Below are positions 225 to 38,477 of a stretch of DNA of 64,000 nt, piece by piece. A program made the position numbers and the translations under genes. A model generated the notes under the pieces. The model was not told where the DNA came from. It did not search any database and was given only the letters and a program-made list of their open reading frames with translations. The stretch comes from Minisyncoccota bacterium. Lineage in GTDB: Bacteria; Patescibacteriota; Minisyncoccia; Phycocordibacterales; UBA9973. The stretch is from contig JBAYLA010000002.1 in the NCBI GenBank assembly GCA_041664285.1, positions 1,349-65,348 on the forward strand, read 5' to 3'. The first letter of the stretch is position 1, and the number at the start of each line of letters is the position of its first letter.

Positions 225-1157
225 ATGGCTGGAACTAAAGAAATCAAAAGACGAATAAAAAGTGTGAAGAATACAAAGAAAATCACTAAAGCGATGGAGC
301 TTGTGGCTGCTTCTAAAATGAAACGCGCAGTTGTATCTACTTTGGCTTCTCGTCTTTATTCTCGATATTCTTGGGAGATTCTTACCTCGGTTGCTGAAAA
401 TTTAGAACAAAATACGCATCCATTTTTCAATGAACAAAAGCAGGGGAAAATATTAGTGGTTTTAATTACTTCTAATCGTGGACTTTGCGGAGGATATGAT
501 TCTCAAATTATTAAAAAAACTCTCCATCAATTGCAAGAGTTTCAGACGTTGGACGTCCAAGGATCCCGACGTCCAACGTCTGAAATAGTTGATATTATTA
601 CTGTTGGCAAGAAAGGAGACATGGCTATGCGAAGAATTAATCAAAATATTACTGAAGTTTTTACCAATATGCCAGATATTAACATAGCTCTTTCAGACAT
701 TGCTCCACTTTCTAAATCATTAATGGATCAATATATAAATCATATTTATAAAAAAGTTTACATAGCTTATACCCATTTTTCTTCTGCTTTATCACAGAAA
801 CCTATAATTAAACAATTACTTCCAATTTCTAAACAAGAAGTTAAAGAAAATTTACAAGAGGCAATAAAAAATTTGCCCGAGCAAGTAAAAAATACAAAAA
901 TAAATTATTTATTTGAAGGAGATTTTGATACACTCATCACCTCTCTTTCTGAGAATATTACGCGAATGCAAATTTATCAAATGTTTCTTGAATCTAACGC
1001 TTCTGAACAATCGTCTCGGATGCTTGCCATGAAAAATGCTAGTGATGCTTCCAGCGAAATGATTGACGACTTAACTCTGATGTTTAATAAAGCCAGACAG
1101 GCGAATATTACCAGAGAAATATCAGAGATTAGTGCCGGTATGGCAAGTGTGAACTAA
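225..1157 (+). CDS. atpG: ATP synthase F1 gamma subunit
   Basis: N-term MAGTKEIKRRIKSVKNTKKITKAMELVAASKMKRA and C-term ...LTLMFNKARQANITREISEI are classic gamma-subunit helices; internal ITSNRGLCGGYDS motif. Confidence 0.9.
   Translation: MAGTKEIKRRIKSVKNTKKITKAMELVAASKMKRAVVSTLASRLYSRYSWEILTSVAENLEQNTHPFFNEQKQGKILVVLITSNRGLCGGYDSQIIKKTLHQLQEFQTLDVQGSRRPTSEIVDIITVGKKGDMAMRRINQNITEVFTNMPDINIALSDIAPLSKSLMDQYINHIYKKVYIAYTHFSSALSQKPIIKQLLPISKQEVKENLQEAIKNLPEQVKNTKINYLFEGDFDTLITSLSENITRMQIYQMFLESNASEQSSRMLAMKNASDASSEMIDDLTLMFNKARQANITREISEISAGMASVN
540..585. repeat. perfect 18-bp inverted repeat (arms TTTCAGACGTTGGACGTC / GACGTCCAACGTCTGAAA) with a 10-nt centre containing GGATCC, embedded in-frame in atpG
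   Basis: read directly from the sequence; arms are exact reverse complements. Confidence 0.9.
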
Positions 1158-1174
1158 AAGATTATTAATTTTAA

Positions 1175-2569
<1,395 letters not shown>

Positions 2570-3078: not shown

Positions 3079-3112
3079 CTAAATAGTCTTATGGCATATG
3101 CCAATACAGGGC

Positions 3113-3141
3113 TTGACTTTTTGTATTATGTATGATATACT
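3113..3141 (+). promoter_or_regulatory. sigma70-like promoter (TTGACT-N17-TATACT) upstream of a small ORF
   Basis: hexamers and spacing read from the sequence. Confidence 0.45.
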
Positions 3142-3215
3142 TAAACCTAAAGTAGTTCAAATAAAATTAAATATTAAACTCTGTGCTTTTTTAAGCACAG
3201 AAAAAGGAGGAACAA

Positions 3216-3392
3216 ATGAATAAAGAAGAAAGATTTTACATTTTTGTTATGAGTGTAGGATTGTTTTTAGTGATATCTGCAAATACCATAGCCACAGGCA
3301 ATTTGTTTACAAACATTGAAGAGTCAGTGTGGGTCGCGGTAGGAGCGATTTCAATCTCTGCTTCATTAAACGCAATGTTGAAACGGAGATAA
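3216..3392 (+). CDS. small hydrophobic protein (58 aa), not in the ORF track
   Basis: ATG preceded by AAAGGAGG at about 7 nt; translation MNKEERFYIFVMSVGLFLVISANTIATGNLFTNIEESVWVAVGAISISASLNAMLKRR looks like a single or double TM peptide. Confidence 0.45.
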   Translation: MNKEERFYIFVMSVGLFLVISANTIATGNLFTNIEESVWVAVGAISISASLNAMLKRR

Positions 3393-3480
3393 GGCGTACC
3401 GTGATCGCGCTATGTTCAATCGAATTGAGAATTACGGACTCAATTCAAAAAAGCTCTGATGGAAACATTCAGGGCATTTT

Positions 3481-4440
3481 TTATTTTTGGTTGGCAAGTC
3501 CAAGCATTAATTCTATATTTTGCACAGCTGCGCCTGCAGCTCCTTTTCCAAGGTTATCAAGAGATGCAACAAGTACGGCTTGTTCTTTTTTTCCATCCCA
3601 AAAAACATGCAAGTCAAGTTTGTCAGTTTTGGCTAGTGCTTCAGGATTAAGACGGCTTTCATATGGAGGATGTAAAATAACTTTAATTTGATTAGATTCT
3701 GCATAATGTTTCCTTAACACTTCTGCTATGTTTTCACCTGTTATTTTCCCTGGGAGCTGTTTTAAATGAAGAGGTATGCTTACAAGCATTCCTTGAGGAA
3801 ACCCTCCAACAGAAGGAATAAAGATTGGACTTTCTTTTAATTGGCTGTGCGTTTGTATTTCTGGTATATGTTTATGTTCTAGATCAAGTCCATATAATTC
3901 AAAATTTGGTGCTGTGCCTTTATTGTGGGCTTCTATCATTTTTTTTCCTCCTCCACTATAACCACTCATAGCATTGATAGTTATTGGATAATCTTCTGGG
4001 ATTACTCCAGCTTGAACAAGAGGCCGAAGAAGTGCGATTGCTCCAGTTGCATAACATCCCGGGTTGGAAACGGCGTCAGCTTCTTTAATTTTTTCTGATT
4101 GTTGGTTGTCCATCTCTGGAAAACCATAAACCCATCCCTGAGCAATGCGATGCGCTGTACTGGCATCAAGAATTTTTGGCGCACTTGAACCAAGGGAGTT
4201 TGCTATCGCAACAGATTCTTTTGCAGCATCATCGGGAAGACAAAGTACAACTAGGTCACTTTTTTCCATAGCTTCGCTACGTTCCTTAGGGTCTTTCGGA
4301 GGTCCTTTTACAAAAACCATTTCAATTTCACCTTTTTCTTCAATAAGTTTTTTTAAGCGCTCGCGTATTTCTAGGGCAGTTGTTCCTTCTGCTCCGTCAA
4401 TAAAGATCTTTGGTTTTGGTTTCCATCCTCCTTTTTCCAT
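3481..4440 (-). CDS. argC: N-acetyl-gamma-glutamyl-phosphate reductase, short type-2 ArgC
   Basis: active-site region NPGCYATG and C-terminal LDNLGKGAAGAAVQN are hallmarks of the ArgC/Asd semialdehyde dehydrogenase family, ArgC-like. Confidence 0.7.
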   Translation of the reverse strand: MEKGGWKPKPKIFIDGAEGTTALEIRERLKKLIEEKGEIEMVFVKGPPKDPKERSEAMEKSDLVVLCLPDDAAKESVAIANSLGSSAPKILDASTAHRIAQGWVYGFPEMDNQQSEKIKEADAVSNPGCYATGAIALLRPLVQAGVIPEDYPITINAMSGYSGGGKKMIEAHNKGTAPNFELYGLDLEHKHIPEIQTHSQLKESPIFIPSVGGFPQGMLVSIPLHLKQLPGKITGENIAEVLRKHYAESNQIKVILHPPYESRLNPEALAKTDKLDLHVFWDGKKEQAVLVASLDNLGKGAAGAAVQNIELMLGLANQK

Positions 4441-4469
4441 AGATTAATTATAACAATTCCTCCTTTTTT

Positions 4470-5180
4470 ATGATAGACTATTATAAATCATTAAATATTA
4501 TGTCTAAATTTTATGTTGTAGCTACGCCAATAGGAAATATGGGGGACATCACCTTTCGGGCTGTTGGAATACTGAAAACCGTTGATTTAATTTTATGCGA
4601 AGATACCAGAGAAACTAAAAAGATTCTAGATAAATATGAAATTAGTAAACCCACTATGAGCTACCACGCTCAAAGTAAGTTTTCCAAAGAAGATAAAATT
4701 TTTGAATTATTGGAGGCAGGGAAAGACTTAGCTTTAGTATCAGATGCTGGGACACCTGGAATTTCAGATCCAGGAGCCATGTTGGTATCTAAAATTAAAG
4801 AATATTTCAATGATAGGGTAAAAGTAATCCCAATTCCGGGAGCGACAGCTTTAATCACAGCCCTGTCGGCTTCAGGGTTACCAACGCATGAGTTTACTTT
4901 TTTAGGATTTTTACCACATAAAAAAGGTAGAGAAACTTTATTTAAAGAAATTGCCCAATCAAAGAGAACAATGGTCTTTTACGAATCTCCTCATAGAATT
5001 TTGAAAACCCTTGAATCACTCGTAAAATTTTGTGAAGGCAAAGAGAAAAAAGTTTGTATTGCCCGTGAACTGACAAAAATTTATGAAGAATTTAAAACTG
5101 GAACTCCAGCAGAAGTTTTAGAATATTTCGAGAAGAATAAAGAGAAACAAAGAGGGGAGTTTACCGTAATTGTTTCTTAA
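4470..5180 (+). CDS. rsmI: 16S rRNA (cytidine1402-2'-O)-methyltransferase RsmI (tetrapyrrole-methylase fold); likely true start at the ATG at 4500
   Basis: VVATPIGNMGDITFRAV...LILCEDTRETKKIL motif typical of RsmI. Confidence 0.8.
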   Translation: MIDYYKSLNIMSKFYVVATPIGNMGDITFRAVGILKTVDLILCEDTRETKKILDKYEISKPTMSYHAQSKFSKEDKIFELLEAGKDLALVSDAGTPGISDPGAMLVSKIKEYFNDRVKVIPIPGATALITALSASGLPTHEFTFLGFLPHKKGRETLFKEIAQSKRTMVFYESPHRILKTLESLVKFCEGKEKKVCIARELTKIYEEFKTGTPAEVLEYFEKNKEKQRGEFTVIVS

Positions 5181-5205: not shown

Positions 5206-7155
5206 TTATAGTAAATCTTCAGGATCTACAAGTACTTCGTAGGATGGAGGTAAAGAAGAAAGTAAATTAAACAGATTTTGGTCAATAGATGAACCATGAG
5301 AAAGTTCAGGCAGAGACCATTGTTTTAGCTCCAATTTTATTAAAGCATTTGTTCTATAATTATTTTTATTTTTTGCTATAAATCCACTGAATATTTCAGG
5401 ATTATATTCTTTAAAAATCTCCTTCAACATCTTCCTTGCTTTTTTTGTTTGTTCTTTATCTCCTTTGTAAGTGATTTTAATAAAACGCTTAAATGGGGGA
5501 TATCCTAAATTTTTTCTATCTTTTAATTCTTCACGCACAAAAGACAATAAATTAGATGTTTTGATTGCCAACATAGATGCATCATCCTCATTTTTAATCT
5601 GAATAATAACTTTCTCTTTTGTTCTATTAATTATTGAAAGTATTATTTGAATAATTTTTTCCCCCATTTGAAAATTAGGGATACTCCAAAGCGAATCAAA
5701 AGAAGCGATGACTGAAAATGCAACTTTTTCTTGAAGATAGAAGAATGCCATTTCTGTCCCAATCAGGATTGATCCTTTGTTTTCTTCAAAATCTTTTATA
5801 ATTTTTTTCGCACCTGAAGCTGTTTTTGCAGATTCTTTATCTAATTTAAAAATTTTAATTTTTGGAAAAAGTTTACTTATCTCTTCATGCACAGTGTCGG
5901 TGCCAATACCAAGGGGTAATAGATTCCAACCTCCACACAATGTGCAATTAGTGTCTCCATCTATGTTTATTTCACATCGATTACAAACGAATACCCTTTT
6001 TTTGTCTTTATGTGATGTATAAAGTACAAGGGGTGCTCCGCACTTTTTACAACTGACTGTTTCGTTACAGTCTTTACATAGGGTCATGGTCGCCAAGCCT
6101 TTTCTTAATGAAAAAATAAAAACATTTTTTTTGCTTTCTAGCGCCAATTTTATTTCCTTTATACTTTCGTCATTAAATATTTGGAATTTTTCTTTATTAT
6201 TTTTTTTCTTGCTTAAAATTTCTATTTCTCCTTCAAAATCAATTCTAAAAGACAAAGGATATAAAGGATTAAAATTATCTATATCTTTTCTTCCGATTGT
6301 TTCGTAACGGAGTATTTCATCAGCCATTATAAACCTTGCATTTATCTTTGAAGTATAAATTTCTACAAAAACTCTTAAATCGAGGTGGGGCATAGCGATC
6401 ATTTTATAAGCATTTGAATTTTCGTGTTCTAAAATTATGGTACCAATATCCTTTTTAGGAATAGAAAGAAAAGGAGGAGTACCAATGATTAAAACTGGAT
6501 GAGTAGCATTTATTATTTTTTCATAAGTCGTTAGATTTTTCTTTTTATTTATTCCACTTTGGATAGAAAAAGTAAATTGTTCAATGCCTTTTGATAATTG
6601 ATCAGTAAATTTTTCTATATCAAATTGGGTAGGCACGACCACAAAAATAGATTTACCTTTAGCAAAAGATTCACGAATAAGGGTTTTATAGATGGAGATA
6701 CGGTCTTCTAATGGATATTGAAATAATAATTTTTCTGTTCTTAATTTTTGTTCGTTTTTAAAAATGTCCTGGTGGCTATTTTTTATTTTTGCAATCTTGT
6801 CATATTCTTCTAAAAAGATATTTGGAATTAATGAAGCTAGGGTCTTATTTTTATTTTGAGCAAAGTATTTACTGGTATCAAAAATAGTATTTAGAAATTC
6901 TTTTAAAAAAACAGAGTCTCCTTTGTCCTTAGTGACTTTTCTTAAATTGAAATTCATGTTTTTTATATTACTTTTTCTTTCCGTTAATTCTTCGCTGGAC
7001 GTGACTAGAGCTAGAGTTTCTTTATTTCTTATTGGGACAGACACAATATTTCCAACAGCTATATCTAAATTAGAAAAATAGGTTAAATCGCCTCTTAGGG
7101 TGTTCTTTTTTAATGGTATGACTGATATAATTTTCATGATTTTATGTGGCGTCAA
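5206..7155 (-). CDS. priA: primosomal protein N' (PriA) homolog with degenerate helicase ATPase motifs
   Basis: N-terminal 3'-DNA-binding domain, Cys-rich zinc-binding insert (CKDCN...CKKCG...CNRCE...CTLCGG) and C-terminal LGYPPF motif typical of PriA; no GxGKT Walker A where expected and DEEH is replaced by LEHE. Confidence 0.65.
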   Translation of the reverse strand: MTPHKIMKIISVIPLKKNTLRGDLTYFSNLDIAVGNIVSVPIRNKETLALVTSSEELTERKSNIKNMNFNLRKVTKDKGDSVFLKEFLNTIFDTSKYFAQNKNKTLASLIPNIFLEEYDKIAKIKNSHQDIFKNEQKLRTEKLLFQYPLEDRISIYKTLIRESFAKGKSIFVVVPTQFDIEKFTDQLSKGIEQFTFSIQSGINKKKNLTTYEKIINATHPVLIIGTPPFLSIPKKDIGTIILEHENSNAYKMIAMPHLDLRVFVEIYTSKINARFIMADEILRYETIGRKDIDNFNPLYPLSFRIDFEGEIEILSKKKNNKEKFQIFNDESIKEIKLALESKKNVFIFSLRKGLATMTLCKDCNETVSCKKCGAPLVLYTSHKDKKRVFVCNRCEINIDGDTNCTLCGGWNLLPLGIGTDTVHEEISKLFPKIKIFKLDKESAKTASGAKKIIKDFEENKGSILIGTEMAFFYLQEKVAFSVIASFDSLWSIPNFQMGEKIIQIILSIINRTKEKVIIQIKNEDDASMLAIKTSNLLSFVREELKDRKNLGYPPFKRFIKITYKGDKEQTKKARKMLKEIFKEYNPEIFSGFIAKNKNNYRTNALIKLELKQWSLPELSHGSSIDQNLFNLLSSLPPSYEVLVDPEDLL

Positions 7156-10812: not shown

Positions 10813-12522
10813 ATGAACAGCGAAATTAAGAATTGTCAAAATTGTAAAAAGGATTTCACTATTGAACCAGAAGATTTTGATTTTTATGAAAAAATAAAAG
10901 TTCCTCCACCTACTTTTTGTCCAGACTGTAGGTTGATGAGACGTCTTTTATGGCGCAATGAACATTCATTATTTCGTAGTCCTAACGGAGAAAAAGGAAA
11001 ATCTAATTTAATTATATCTATCTATCATCCAGACTCTAAGCTAATATCTTACGATAAAGAAATGTGGTGGAGTGATAAATGGGATCCTTGTGATTATGGC
11101 ATAGGGTATGATTTTTCAAGGTCATTTTTTGAACAATTTAAAGAACTTCTAGAAAAAGTTCCACACTTAGCATTATCTAATTCAAATTCTATAAATTCTA
11201 GATTTTGCCAGACAGCAGTTGAGCTAAAAAATTGCTATTTGGTAGGTTCTAGTATGGCGTGTGAAGATTCTATGTATTGTAATCGTATCTTTCATTGTAA
11301 ATTTACACACGACTCTTATATTTGTTATTCTACAGAATTTGGTTATGACAATGTATATTGTCGTGAATCTAGTAAATTATTTTTTTCCAGAGAAAGCGAA
11401 AGTTGTTTGGACTCATATTTTCTTTATGATTGCAGAAATTGCTCTAGTTGTATTTTATGTACTAATTTAAGAAATAAAAGCTATTGCATAGAAAACATAC
11501 AATACAACAAAGAAGAATATATAAAAAAGAAAAAAGAACTTGCTTTAAATACTCGTTTTGGTATAGAAAAAGCAAGAATTAGATTTGAACAGTTATGGCG
11601 TGATGCATTTCATAAACATTTAAAACTTACTAATACTGTAAATGTTATTGGAGATCAAGTTAAAGATTCTCGTAACTGCTACTACGTTTTTGACCTAGAA
11701 GGAGAAGCGGAAAATGTAAAATATGCTCACTGGGGCTCTAAGGGAACACGTGATTCTTATGACGTTGGACCTGGATGTGGCAATAATGCTGAGCTTCTTT
11801 ATGAAGGTATAAGTACTGGAGTGCAGAACAGTCGAGCTTTTTTTAACGCTGTAGTTTGGTATTCCAATAATATTTATTATAGTTATATGCTAAACAATTG
11901 CCAAAATTGTTTCGGTTGTGCTGAAATGAATAGCAAGCAGTATTGTATTCTAAACAGACAATATACAAAAAAAGAATATGAAAATTTAATGCCAAAGATA
12001 GTTGAACAGATGAAAAATGTTCCTTATATAGACAAAAAAGGCAATATATATAGTTTTGGAGAATTTTTCCCTCCAGAAATATCCCCATTTACTTATAATG
12101 AAACAGTAGCACAGGATTATTTTCCATTAGACAAAAGAAGAGCTGAGGCGGAGGGGTATTCTTGGCGAGAATATCAACCTAGTTCTTATCAAATTACCAT
12201 CAATGGGCAAGATTTACCTCAAGCTATTTCCGAGGTAAATGATTCAATCTTAAATGAGGTTATTGAATGCGAAATTACTAAAAAACCTTTTAAAATTCTT
12301 GAGCAAGAGTTGAGTTTTTATCGAAGACTTGATTTACCACTTCCATCAATTCATCCTGACGAAAGGCACAACAGAAGATTAAAACTTCGCAATCCGATGG
12401 TTTTAAATAAAAGGATGTGCTTCTTTGGAGATGAAGAAGTTCTGACAACTTATTTACCAGAATCTAAAGGTGGTCCGAAAAAAGTAGTATGTACAAAACA
12501 TTACAATCAAGAGATTTATTAA
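10813..12522 (+). CDS. large cysteine-rich protein of unknown function (paralog A, 569 aa; N- and C-terminal zinc-ribbon-like CxxC pairs and many internal CxxC/NC..C motifs)
   Basis: uninterrupted ORF; clear paralog of 56026..57756 (shared blocks CQNCKK.F.I..EDF.FYEKIKV.PPTFCP.CR..RR, YDFS.SFFEQF, CR.C..C.LC.NLRNK..C, NC..C..CFGC, VIEC....KK.F....E.L.YLR). Confidence 0.8.
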   Translation: MNSEIKNCQNCKKDFTIEPEDFDFYEKIKVPPPTFCPDCRLMRRLLWRNEHSLFRSPNGEKGKSNLIISIYHPDSKLISYDKEMWWSDKWDPCDYGIGYDFSRSFFEQFKELLEKVPHLALSNSNSINSRFCQTAVELKNCYLVGSSMACEDSMYCNRIFHCKFTHDSYICYSTEFGYDNVYCRESSKLFFSRESESCLDSYFLYDCRNCSSCILCTNLRNKSYCIENIQYNKEEYIKKKKELALNTRFGIEKARIRFEQLWRDAFHKHLKLTNTVNVIGDQVKDSRNCYYVFDLEGEAENVKYAHWGSKGTRDSYDVGPGCGNNAELLYEGISTGVQNSRAFFNAVVWYSNNIYYSYMLNNCQNCFGCAEMNSKQYCILNRQYTKKEYENLMPKIVEQMKNVPYIDKKGNIYSFGEFFPPEISPFTYNETVAQDYFPLDKRRAEAEGYSWREYQPSSYQITINGQDLPQAISEVNDSILNEVIECEITKKPFKILEQELSFYRRLDLPLPSIHPDERHNRRLKLRNPMVLNKRMCFFGDEEVLTTYLPESKGGPKKVVCTKHYNQEIY

Positions 12523-32294: not shown

Positions 32295-33296
32295 ATGAAT
32301 AATTTTTGGCATAAATTAGATAGGCCATTTTTCTGCTTGGCTCCAATGTCAGATGTTACAGATATTGCTTTTCGTTACATTTTGGCAAAATATGGCAAAA
32401 ATAGAGAAAATAAAAATAGAATTGTTTTCTGGACAGAGTTTATTTCTGCAGATGGTTTGTGTAATAAGCTTGCCAGGAAAAAATTATCACATATATTAAA
32501 ATATTCAGAATCTGAAAGGCCGATTGTGGCTCAGGTTTTCGGAGCAAATCCGGAAAATATGAAAAAAGCTTGTCAGTATATTGCTAGTCTTGGTTTTGAT
32601 GGAATAGATATAAATATGGGTTGTCCAGATAAATCTGTTATTAGCCAAGGAGCTGGATCTGCTTTAATAAAAACTCCACAACTTGCAAGAAAGATCATTG
32701 AAGCTGCGCATGCCGGTATAGAGGCTACTGGTTCGCATATTCCTGTATCAGTCAAAACGAGAATTGGTTTTAATAAAGAAGAAATAGATAAATGGATTCC
32801 TGAGTTAGTAAAAAAAGATATCTCTGCTCTAACAATTCATTTACGTACCACTAAAGAACTTTCACTTGTTCCCGCAAACTGGAATCATCTTAAAAAAATA
32901 AAAGAACTTATTAAAAAGAGTGGGGAAAAGATCTTACTTATTGGTAATGGAGATATTGTAGATATGAAGGATGGAGAAAGTAAAGCCAAAGAATATGGCT
33001 GTGATGGAGTAATGATAGGCCGGGGAGTTTTTGGTAATCCATTTTTCTTTTCGGGAGAAAAAAATCAAAATATTTCAACGGAAGAAAGATTAAAAATCTT
33101 AGTGGAACATACTCAAATTTTTGACAAAGAACTCTCTAAGCCTAAATATAAAAATTTTGCTGTGATGAAAAAACATTTTAAGGCTTATGTGCATGGTTTT
33201 GATGGGGCGAAAGAGCTTCGAGTGAAACTAATGGAAACTGAAAATGCCAAACAAGTAGAAAAAATAGTAAAGAAATTTTTAGAAAGAAAAAATTAA
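32295..33296 (+). CDS. dus: tRNA-dihydrouridine synthase
   Basis: LAPMSDVTDIAFR start, FMN-binding TIM-barrel motifs (NMGCP, catalytic Cys region). Confidence 0.85.
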   Translation: MNNFWHKLDRPFFCLAPMSDVTDIAFRYILAKYGKNRENKNRIVFWTEFISADGLCNKLARKKLSHILKYSESERPIVAQVFGANPENMKKACQYIASLGFDGIDINMGCPDKSVISQGAGSALIKTPQLARKIIEAAHAGIEATGSHIPVSVKTRIGFNKEEIDKWIPELVKKDISALTIHLRTTKELSLVPANWNHLKKIKELIKKSGEKILLIGNGDIVDMKDGESKAKEYGCDGVMIGRGVFGNPFFFSGEKNQNISTEERLKILVEHTQIFDKELSKPKYKNFAVMKKHFKAYVHGFDGAKELRVKLMETENAKQVEKIVKKFLERKN

Positions 33297-33340
33297 AACT
33301 TTGATTTTAATTTTTTCTTATTTTAAGGTATACTACTTTT

Positions 33341-37120: not shown

Positions 37121-38380
37121 ATGAGAATTGAGAAAAAAACTTTTGAATCACTTAAGATAAGAAACTACAGATTATATTTTATTGGTCAATCTATTTCTTT
37201 ACCTGGAACTTGGATGCAGACAGTTGCTCAATCTTGGCTTGTATTAAAATTAACTGGTTCTGGTACAGCCTTGGGGCTTGTCCTTGCCTTACAATATTTG
37301 CCGATGCTTATTCTTGGACCCTGGGGAGGACTTTTAGTAGATAGATTTCCAAAAAGAAAATTATTATTTTTTACCCAATCCGCTTATGGTATATTCGCTT
37401 TAATTTTGGGAATTTTAGTACTTATAGGTACAGTACAGTTATGGATGATTTATATCTTTGCTTTTTGTTTGGGTTTGATAAATACAGTAGATAATCCGAC
37501 ACGACAGACTTTCGCTGTTGAAATGGTAAGTAAGGACAAGTTACATAATGCTATTGTTTTAAATTCAATTGAAATAAATCTCGCTCGAGTTGTTGGGCCT
37601 GCCCTAGCTGGTATTTTAATCTTATCTGTTGGAATTGGATTTTGTTTTATCCTAAATGCAATTTCTTTTATAGGGGTCATCATTTCTTTGTCTATGATGC
37701 ACTCAAAAGAATTATTCCCTTCTCCTCTGGTAAAAAAGAAAAAAGGACAAGTTATAGAAGGCCTAAAATATGTGAAAAACTCTCCAGTAATTAAAGACAC
37801 GATTATTATGATGGCAATCATTGGAACTTTGACTTATGAATTTAGTGTCAGTTTGCCACTTTTGACACAATCTACTTTTCATGGAGATGCAGGAACTTTT
37901 ACATTACTGACTTCTTCTATTGGAATAGGTGCAGTCATCGGTGGATTATTTATTGCTAGTCGTAAAAAAACTGGTTCTGTGACTATTGTTACTGGAGCTT
38001 TTTTCTTAGGACTTTTTGTTTTAGGTGCCTCAATGGCTCAAAATATCTTGATGGCGATTTTGTTGTTAATAGGAGTTGGCTTTTTTTCTATCTATTTTAA
38101 TTCTTCAGGAAATACTACAATTCAACTTGAAAGTTCTCCTTCTATGCGAGGCAGGGTCATGGCTCTTTGGGCAGTGGCATCTCTCGGTTCAACTCCAATA
38201 GGGAGCCCAATCATTGGTTGGGTCGGAGAACATATGGGAGCTAGATACTGCGTGGCTCTAGGAGGGGTAGCTGCAATTGTAGCTGCTTTGTTCGGGGCAA
38301 TACAATTAAAAAGAGGTAAATATCTAGAAGTACAGGAAAAAGAAATAGAGGAAACCGATATTTCTGTGCCAAAGATTTAA
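37121..38380 (+). CDS. MFS transporter (12 TM)
   Basis: MFS signature GPWGGLLVDRFPKRK between TM2 and TM3, 419 aa with about 12 hydrophobic segments. Confidence 0.8.
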   Translation: MRIEKKTFESLKIRNYRLYFIGQSISLPGTWMQTVAQSWLVLKLTGSGTALGLVLALQYLPMLILGPWGGLLVDRFPKRKLLFFTQSAYGIFALILGILVLIGTVQLWMIYIFAFCLGLINTVDNPTRQTFAVEMVSKDKLHNAIVLNSIEINLARVVGPALAGILILSVGIGFCFILNAISFIGVIISLSMMHSKELFPSPLVKKKKGQVIEGLKYVKNSPVIKDTIIMMAIIGTLTYEFSVSLPLLTQSTFHGDAGTFTLLTSSIGIGAVIGGLFIASRKKTGSVTIVTGAFFLGLFVLGASMAQNILMAILLLIGVGFFSIYFNSSGNTTIQLESSPSMRGRVMALWAVASLGSTPIGSPIIGWVGEHMGARYCVALGGVAAIVAALFGAIQLKRGKYLEVQEKEIEETDISVPKI

Positions 38381-38477
38381 ATAAACAAGGACGGTCCTTG
38401 TTTATTTAGCAGAAGGTACTTTTAGTTTTATTTTGATATAATAGTTTTATGAAAAATAAATATGTTATTATTTAAAA

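Follow-up and report, generated by a model that had tools for sequence, protein, structure and literature searches.

An in-frame palindrome in atpG of a Patescibacterial genome, probably a REP doublet of a Y1 transposase-associated repeat family

The 64,000-nt stretch of DNA considered here (contig JBAYLA010000002.1 of assembly GCA_041664285.1, positions 1,349 to 65,348; hereafter the window) comes from a metagenome-assembled genome of 'Candidatus Paceibacterota', within the Patescibacteria or candidate phyla radiation (CPR), and carries atpG, the gene for the F1 gamma subunit of the ATP synthase. The neighbours of atpG match the families ATP-synt_ab and ATP-synt_DE_N, and the atp operon is normal. 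Within atpG lies a perfect inverted repeat that spans 46 nt in all, composed of two 18-nt arms and a 10-nt spacer, and is read through in frame (Table 1). This palindrome is very probably a non-autonomous mobile element of the type known as repetitive extragenic palindromic (REP) sequences and their inverted doublets (REPINs), that is, an in-frame REP doublet of a Y1 transposase-associated family that a surface loop of the gamma subunit tolerates. The family is dispersed in Paceibacteria-type Patescibacteria, and in the high-copy genomes a Y1 transposase gene is bracketed by the same hairpin.

Table 1. Positions in the window of atpG, of the palindrome and of its parts, the latter read as components of a REP doublet.
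Feature	Position	Strand	Remarks
atpG (F1 gamma subunit), 310 codons	225-1157	+	Pfam PF00231; within the atpA-atpG-atpD-atpC cluster
AtpG codons 106-120, peptide FQTLDVQGSRRPTSE	540-584	+	encoded by the element, in frame
Complete palindrome, probable REP doublet (REPIN), 18-nt arms and 10-nt spacer	540-585		same core in 46 loci of 12 Patescibacteria genomes
Left arm TTTCAGACGTTGGACGTC	540-557		exact reverse complement of right arm
Outer stem TTTC	540-543		paired with GAAA at 582-585; differs between copies, stays complementary
Left REP unit, AGACGT-TGG-ACGTC	544-557	+	small near-palindrome itself; matches hairpin flanking Y1 transposase genes
Spacer/loop CAAGGATCCC	558-567		variable part of the element
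Right arm GACGTCCAACGTCTGAAA	568-585		exact reverse complement of left arm
Right REP unit, GACGT-CCA-ACGTCT	568-581	+	inverted copy of left unit
Imperfect outward extension, 29-nt arms	529-596		83% complementary; may be chance in AT-rich DNA

The initial annotation of the window had described a perfect 18-bp inverted repeat in frame in atpG, and both the exactness of the arms and their place in the reading frame are borne out. The GGATCC that it set at the centre is present (561-566) but lies 1 nt off the centre of the repeat. No demonstrated meaning attaches to the AatII- and BamHI-like appearance that it also pointed out: the two GACGTC sites (552-557 and 568-573) belong to the conserved unit, and GGATCC falls in the variable spacer, where the related locus L004 has GGATTC. 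With arms of 18 nt, the palindrome is the longest perfect inverted repeat of the window, as against 9-13 nt in 30 composition-matched simulations, and its GC content is 0.52 compared with 0.33 for the window. The hairpin is predicted to fold with -36.3 kcal/mol as RNA (z = -8.1 against shuffled sequences) and with -20.9 kcal/mol as DNA (z = -9.2). The window holds no second copy of the 18-mer, even with up to three mismatches allowed, and fuzzy searches of the window with the 18-mer, the 13-mer arm and the 9-mer core gave no further family copy; three other exact matches to the 9-mer, at 11761, 37086 and 39073, are non-palindromic and were set aside as chance matches. A scan of the window for other GC-rich, REP-like hairpins likewise found none and returned only AT-rich, terminator-like hairpins. 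The inverted repeats at 33284-33319 and 38378-38408, which are AT-rich with perfect stems of 14-15 nt (AAGAAAAAATTAAAA/... and TAAATAAACAAGGAC/...), look like the stems of intrinsic terminators unrelated to the REP family.

The closest orthologue of the window's AtpG (P0002; 91% identity) is 9 residues shorter exactly at the palindrome loop, and most of 120 orthologues are 10-12 residues shorter there, with loop length variable among them, in agreement with the original estimate of about 10 residues. In an AlphaFold model of AtpG (mean pLDDT 67), residues 106-120 comprise the last part of helix 93-110 followed by coil; pLDDT falls below 50 over residues 109-118, and strand 122-127 begins just beyond. 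The model fits an exposed, unstructured surface loop. Where the closest empty allele (L002) has 23 native nucleotides, the window has 50, namely AG, the 46-nt palindrome and TA, so that the insertion of about 30 nt proposed at the outset is right for the net gain (27 nt) but not for the exchange that produced it. The core of the family is free of stop codons in every frame, and with this core and a net gain of 27 nt, atpG therefore stays open.

The same element stands at the same codon of atpG across samples and assembly pipelines (ENA ERZ27249449, JGI 3300050348, GCA_031291825.1, ENA ERZ27245409 and ERZ27249030). At locus L003 (JGI 3300050348; AtpG 84% identical) the palindrome differs by a single base of the spacer (CAGGGATCCC), and the outward extension listed in Table 1 has a counterpart with 24-nt arms that are 92% complementary. 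At L004 (GCA_031291825.1; AtpG 79% identical), where the spacer is CAGGGATTCC, it differs at four positions, two of which compensate each other in the outer stem (TTTC/GAAA to TTCC/GGAA). Third-codon identity of atpG between the window and these two loci is 0.65 and 0.61, respectively, compared with 1 and 4 differing positions in the 46-nt element; as these alignments show, conservation acts at the level of the nucleic acid, above that of synonymous sites. The spacer of L051 (GGAATCCCTG) is the exact reverse complement of that of L004, and the element is therefore present in both orientations at this codon. Decay is also evident: L051 and L053 carry one arm mismatch each, L052 has a mutated left arm, and L054 retains an internally deleted remnant. 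The outer stem reads TTCC/GGAA in L051, as in L004, and TTGC/GCAA in L053.

On the AtpG tree, every element-bearing lineage is sister to element-free lineages with native-looking loops (P0001 with P0002/P0004, P0003 with P0026/P0028, P0005 with P0012/P0017, P0006 with P0020, and P0015 with P0009). The filled alleles of the window, L003, L004, L051, L052 and L054 have one shared junction, GAG-TTyC...GrAA-AyA, which speaks for a single origin and subsequent spread by recombination over short tracts. The junction of L053 differs in that it lies two codons further upstream, with the TTGC/GCAA outer stem and an extra right-arm remnant; this junction, together with the inverted spacers of L051 and probably L052, implies more than one event at the atpG site. 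The remnant itself (L053:1540-1620), a second and degenerate right arm (TCCAATGTCTGGA) that follows the near-perfect palindrome, suggests that a new copy was inserted into or beside an older, decayed copy. The immediate flanks of the window's element are closer to L002 than to L003, as would be expected of a short conversion tract and of an independent hit alike, and the site as a whole may reflect repeated independent insertion or recombinational spread of one filled allele.

Beyond atpG, the element belongs to a dispersed family. A scan of one genome per species for the core AGACGTTGGACGTC-N(1-24)-GACGTCCAACGTCT, with exact arms, recovered 46 loci with about 52 copies in 12 species-level genomes, all of them Patescibacteria. 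Many contigs with exact-core copies are present in JARLIG01, CAZKWN01, JBAYFP01 and CAWHSF01. The search was designed to hold the 14-nt arms constant; the 3-4 nt that flank the core vary yet stay complementary (CTCC/GGAG, TAC/GTA, CCC/GGG, TGC/GCA), the paired fraction at positions 1-4 outside the core being 0.88, 0.77, 0.65 and 0.54, with background values beyond. The doublets are in inverted orientation in about 52 copies, and the spacers measure 6-22 nt, many being palindromic themselves.

A large share of these copies lies within genes. Of 49 scan copies, 24 are found in an open stretch of at least 90 amino acids that reaches at least 10 codons on either side, and 16 in long open reading frames (ORFs); 10 such ORFs were confirmed by Pfam, the hosts being GMP synthase, GatB, an ABC transporter, topoisomerase I, MnmA, a class-V aminotransferase, PurH (two copies), a Mur ligase, a XerC/D-type recombinase and a metallo-beta-lactamase-fold protein. 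Depending on the host, the same DNA is read as QTLDV..RRPTS, PDVGRL..RRPTSG or RRWTS..QTSNV, and because the hosts read it in different frames, the conserved entity is the nucleic acid and not the peptide. The other copies are extragenic; those that could be identified have a separate gene on either side, both on the same strand, as is usual for REPs, and none of the identifiable cases (L005, L018, L036) has a gene split by a copy into out-of-frame halves. In atpG, atpD, guaA, gatB, murE and a cysteine desulfurase, at one site per gene, a copy is present in at least two species. No family copies were found in a collection of viral contigs.

At L004 a second in-frame copy (LPDVGRQESGRPTSP) occupies the neighbouring atpD, a copy shared with L034, while the AtpD of the window has nothing comparable at that loop. 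In these two atpD genes (L004:11290-11360 and L034:~5790-5860, aligned with window 1500-1560) the element and its flanks, 44 nt, stand between GATGAT and GGTAAA, a hexamer that is also present in empty alleles; the segment downstream has 17 nt fewer than its counterpart in empty alleles, for a net gain of 27 nt, and the shortening may represent a frame-restoring deletion. In a close relative (L018:4301-4339, the contig of P0004) a family copy lies between atpC and a TP_methylase gene. The same interval of the window (3080-4470) has no repeat and instead carries an additional minus-strand gene (3481-4440, semialdehyde-dehydrogenase-like) and a 58-aa ORF.

When the ORFs near family copies were compared all against all, an ORF of about 220 amino acids was found to adjoin copies in the three highest-copy genomes (L022, L029 and L048). 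Its products match Pfam Y1_Tnp ('Transposase IS200 like') at 23.5-26.4 bits, against a gathering score of 23, and contain an HUH-like NHFHF motif and a GGYTKYFN...LFQGRFKS region. In all three genomes the gene is bracketed by the family hairpin, each hairpin being followed, on the coding strand of the transposase, by GGAGGkTTATCCACA, and the flanking unit, CCAGACGT-TGG-ACGTCTGG, matches the REP units of the atpG element. A metagenome scan with an alignment of the three sequences yielded 304 relatives of the transposase; 80 loci were fetched, and 71 had enough flanking sequence to be searched for small, GC-rich hairpins with a stem of at least 7 bp. Such hairpins occur on both sides of the gene in 47 of the 71 relatives, with the same stem in 44 of those, and on one side in a further 21, compared with 15 of 165 control windows. 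The flanking hairpins of these relatives have stems of 9-14 bp whose sequence shifts with the transposase clade (CCAGACGT-TGG-ACGTCTGG, TTCGGACGT-TGG-ACGTCCGAA, GTCGGGTGT-TGG-ACACCCGAC, CAGATAGAGGT-TTA-ACCTCTATCTG and CAGACAGCGCC-TAA-GGCGCTGTCTG). An ORF of about 310 amino acids near the transposase was also considered; it encodes YceG, an ordinary neighbour and not a part of the system. A divergent paralogue, with a Y1_Tnp score of 40.5 bits and about 35% identity to the main transposase, is found at L013 (3-506 and 540-620), next to tRNA-gene-like sequence and with no family hairpin beside it.

In the explanation proposed here, the element consists of two REP units of about 14 nt, AGACGT-TGG-ACGTC and its inverse, which face each other across a short spacer. 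If the enzyme acts like IS200/IS605 transposases and in line with the biochemistry of the E. coli REP-associated tyrosine transposase (RAYT), it would recognize the folded hairpin on single-stranded DNA, cut and rejoin beside it, and so spread the doublets. One copy would have been inserted, or have arrived by recombination, in the gamma loop between the first helix and the second strand of the globular domain. There the observed frame would allow its translation, adding about 15 residues to a loop that is predicted to be disordered and is presumably tolerant. Selection would purge insertions that break the frame, and in-gene copies would survive only in frame and in permissive loops. The perfection of the arms might reflect a recent origin, a constraint imposed by recognition by the transposase, or self-correction of the palindrome by template switching. 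The window copy is probably a passive passenger without a gene-specific function.

Several observations weigh against this explanation. The sole NCBIfam match of the transposase, to the RAYT model REP_Tyr_transpos, reaches 30 bits, below the cutoff of 80, and the enzyme could belong either to the RAYT clade or to IS200 proper; nor did sequence searches, with a single sequence or with the three-sequence profile, retrieve a related solved structure. Classical REPs are defined by a guide tetranucleotide, GTAG or GTGG, located 0-2 nt 5' of the foot of the hairpin (Quentin 2018, PMC6006769). The present family has no GTAG at the foot, C adjoins the core in 48 of 52 copies, and GTGG occurs only within a TGTGGAWAA box, about 6 nt or more from the foot, in a subset of copies. 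The window copy also lies inside a gene, contrary to the extragenic location that is characteristic of REPs, to which intragenic copies are documented exceptions, and the window contains just this one copy and no Y1 transposase homologue (best tblastn E = 0.35), so it may be an immobile relic. The insertion, moreover, is not a clean addition, native nucleotides having been replaced rather than purely added to. Mobility and cleavage, finally, are proposed by analogy rather than observed.

Other origins of the palindrome must be set against the REP doublet. Three had been offered by the initial annotation, of which a miniature inverted-repeat insertion came closest, with the reservation that the element is no classical transposable element of that kind and rather a REP doublet linked to a Y1/HUH transposase. 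A second option, a chimera formed during assembly or amplification, would make the palindrome a fold-back artefact. Fold-back chimeras can indeed yield perfect palindromes, and the window holds a single copy, but the same palindrome occupies the same codon in independent assemblies of other samples produced by different pipelines, about 50 further copies are found in 12 genomes and the reading frame is kept, and a chimera is thus vanishingly improbable. The last of the three, a gene-specific regulatory hairpin of the mRNA, would lower the level of gamma relative to alpha and beta through ribosome pausing or mRNA decay within the atp operon. The great stability of the predicted structure (-36 kcal/mol, z = -8), nucleotide-level conservation above that of synonymous sites and the second copy in atpD of L004 and L034 would all be in keeping with such a role. 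Yet the closest relatives, P0002 and P0004, have normal loops and no element, the same hairpin stands in many unrelated genes and in intergenic DNA, and the copy at the atpG site has decayed by mutation and deletion in several lineages. A search of Rfam returned no family, only a chance-level miRNA match of 17 bits against a gathering score of 57, and a regulatory hairpin is accordingly considered very unlikely.

It may also be asked whether the protein rather than the DNA is the target of selection, such that the 15-residue loop serves gamma function, by regulation or by contact with a partner, and the palindrome is incidental. Gamma subunits of other lineages carry regulatory insertions, and the peptide ..QTLDV..RRPTS.. 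is found at the atpG site in 7 orthologues and 3 remnants. This adaptive scenario is nonetheless highly improbable, since other proteins use different frames of this DNA, the reverse-complement spacer of L051 gives a different peptide, the loop is predicted to be disordered coil, sister lineages do without the element, and erosion is apparent in L052 and L054. A local origin without any mobile element is conceivable as well, by a template-switch (quasi-palindrome) mutation in which adjacent atpG sequence was copied in inverted orientation. Perfect palindromes are known to arise by template switching, and the flanks at 529-596 are weakly complementary; however, copies in unrelated genes and genomes share the identical 28-nt core, as does the hairpin that flanks the transposase, which leaves an origin within atpG itself exceedingly improbable.

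A further feature of the family is a tag that resembles a DnaA box. In 12 of 56 copies the consensus TTWTNCACA (TTATCCACA) lies within 25 nt of the hairpin foot, where chance would give 0.38 such cases, and it always points away from the hairpin; in four further copies of one genome (JBAYFP) it lies inside the spacer of the doublet. The tag occurs in or beside family copies at L011, L022, L026, L027, L029, L031, L038, L040, L047 and L048, and near transposase genes at L057, L062, L068, L073, L077, L080, L082 and L086, and related GTTwTCCACA strings follow many of the transposase-flanking hairpins. Copies within genes translate it as VDNP or VDKP. The atpG copy of the window does not carry the tag. 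Y1 transposases with DnaA-like C-terminal domains have been described, whose flanking repeats are unlike DnaA boxes (Quentin 2018, PMC6006769); in the C-terminus of the present transposase no DnaA-like helix-turn-helix was detected by Pfam even at E = 10. The combination of this tag with repeated colonization of the same codons in essential genes raises the tentative, and on balance rather doubtful, idea of a distinct REPIN-RAYT branch native to the CPR. In such a branch, the tag would point to help from the replication initiator, or from the replication fork, in recruiting or targeting the element, and the family would repeatedly supply new protein loops, in a semi-site-specific manner, to genomes that have hardly any intergenic DNA.

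The gene atpG also hosts other inserts. The loop that carries the palindrome (site B) is reused by several palindrome families, and two other sites of the gene host further families. In distant orthologues, site B shows the recurring peptides 'SQKTVFGE..PQRRPSFG', 'SGESLKLSPEE' and 'DPRHGGAS' (P0039, P0045, P0047, P0056, P0076 and P0085; P0048, P0054 and P0063; P0083 and P0112), which probably derive from other repeat families; the DNA of the DPRHGGAS insert, at L034, forms only a weak 5-bp hairpin. Site C of the P0004 contig (L018:~2110-2170) holds a perfect in-frame palindrome with 21-nt arms, TTGCCGAAGCCTTGCTTTGGC-AAGATA-GCCAAAGCAAGGCTTCGGCAA, that encodes EFAEALLWQDSQSKASA, and related 'EALLSxGESKAS' peptides are present in P0013, P0026, P0028, P0046, P0047 and P0056. 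A further family at this site, GACGTCGGGCTTCCGC-AGA-GCGGAATGCCGACGTC, encodes 'DVGLPQSGxPTS' at L053, L054, L051 and L004, with counterparts in P0010, P0015, P0019, P0020, P0022, P0029 and P0035. Site A, between FFNEQ and GKTL (about 425-445 in the window), accommodates an 8-residue, GC-rich insert, 'IHPGQPGG' or 'VYPGQQGG', in P0005/L004, P0014, P0020 and P0029, and is without insert in the window; its DNA in L004, CACCCTGGCCAGCCAGGCGGGG, holds the short palindrome CCTGG-CCAG-CCAGG.

These findings have consequences for the annotation of CPR genomes and for the biology of their repeats. The atpG gene call stands with its 15 extra residues, the palindrome being genuine biology and no chimera, and GC-rich hairpins in AT-rich genes deserve caution from annotators and assemblers alike. 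REP/REPIN-type elements with a Y1 transposase exist in Patescibacteria, where intergenic DNA is scarce and a considerable proportion of the copies persists solely as in-frame inserts in surface loops of essential proteins, and the element family helps to explain at least part of the length variation of AtpG in the CPR. With its small transposase, 14-nt unit and possible DnaA-box tag, the family also offers a tractable system for the study of target choice by hairpin-specific transposases.

Among known systems, the classic example of in-frame palindromes comes from Rickettsia, where the Rickettsia palindromic elements of the RPE-1 type are selfish palindromes located in frame in many housekeeping genes that have no relation to each other, and the encoded proteins can still fold (Ogata et al. 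2000, as summarized in PMC10969869). These elements are about 100-150 bp long and restricted to Rickettsia, and no dedicated transposase is named for them in the sources used (PMC10969869). The present element, at 46 bp, of unrelated sequence, linked to Y1 and in a Paceibacteria-type host, resembles them in behaviour only, and its size and host rule it out as a member. Intragenic REPs, both singles and dimers, have been reported in frame in conserved genes of several species, with more than half of the inserts being dimers or groups that add 20-30 residues and that were judged tolerated, not functional; the same survey, from which CPR genomes were absent, reclassified the Rickettsia elements RPE-4 and RPE-6 as 'CGTC-tagged' REPs (Di Nocera 2013, PMC3733652). 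The present family shares the in-frame location within conserved genes. CGTC-tagged REPs, however, have an unpaired terminal CGTC, a stem of 8-9 bp that starts with A-T pairs, a loop of 4-5 nt and a CCA tail, and are said to be without a dedicated transposase (PMC3733652), whereas here CGTC lies within the stem, the loop has 3 nt (TGG/CCA) and a flanked transposase exists, differences that exclude the element from the CGTC class. With classical miniature inverted-repeat transposable elements of the DDE type it has in common its small size, non-autonomous nature, inverted-repeat structure and the possibility of in-frame fusions. It differs from them in having no direct target-site duplication, the flanks at the core being inverted complements and not direct repeats, and in its association with a Y1/HUH rather than a DDE transposase, with no DDE-type terminal repeats; assignment to this type was rejected, native sequence being replaced and not duplicated relative to the empty allele.

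The closest parallel is provided by the REP/REPIN-RAYT systems described in Pseudomonas and Enterobacteria (Nunvar 2010, PMC2817692; Bertels & Rainey 2011, PMC3116915; Quentin 2018, PMC6006769). In the literature searched, no paper was found that links palindromic in-frame elements or RAYTs with Patescibacteria, and no report came up there of the CPR host, the high in-gene fraction, the presence of several palindrome families in one atpG loop or the DnaA-box-like tag. The present family departs from the described systems in its host, in its shorter units (stem of 6-9 bp, loop of 3 nt) and doublets of 34-50 nt, and in a subset of copies that have a TTWTNCACA motif a few nucleotides from the foot or in the spacer, instead of the guide. 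About a third to half of its copies, furthermore, lie inside ORFs, while classical REPs are mostly extragenic. What the two have in common is the architecture itself: short, GC-rich hairpin units are dispersed in many copies, here in the genomes of relatives, often as inverted doublets that form one long hairpin, and the gene for a Y1/HUH transposase is bracketed by the same units, whose sequence co-varies with the transposase clade.

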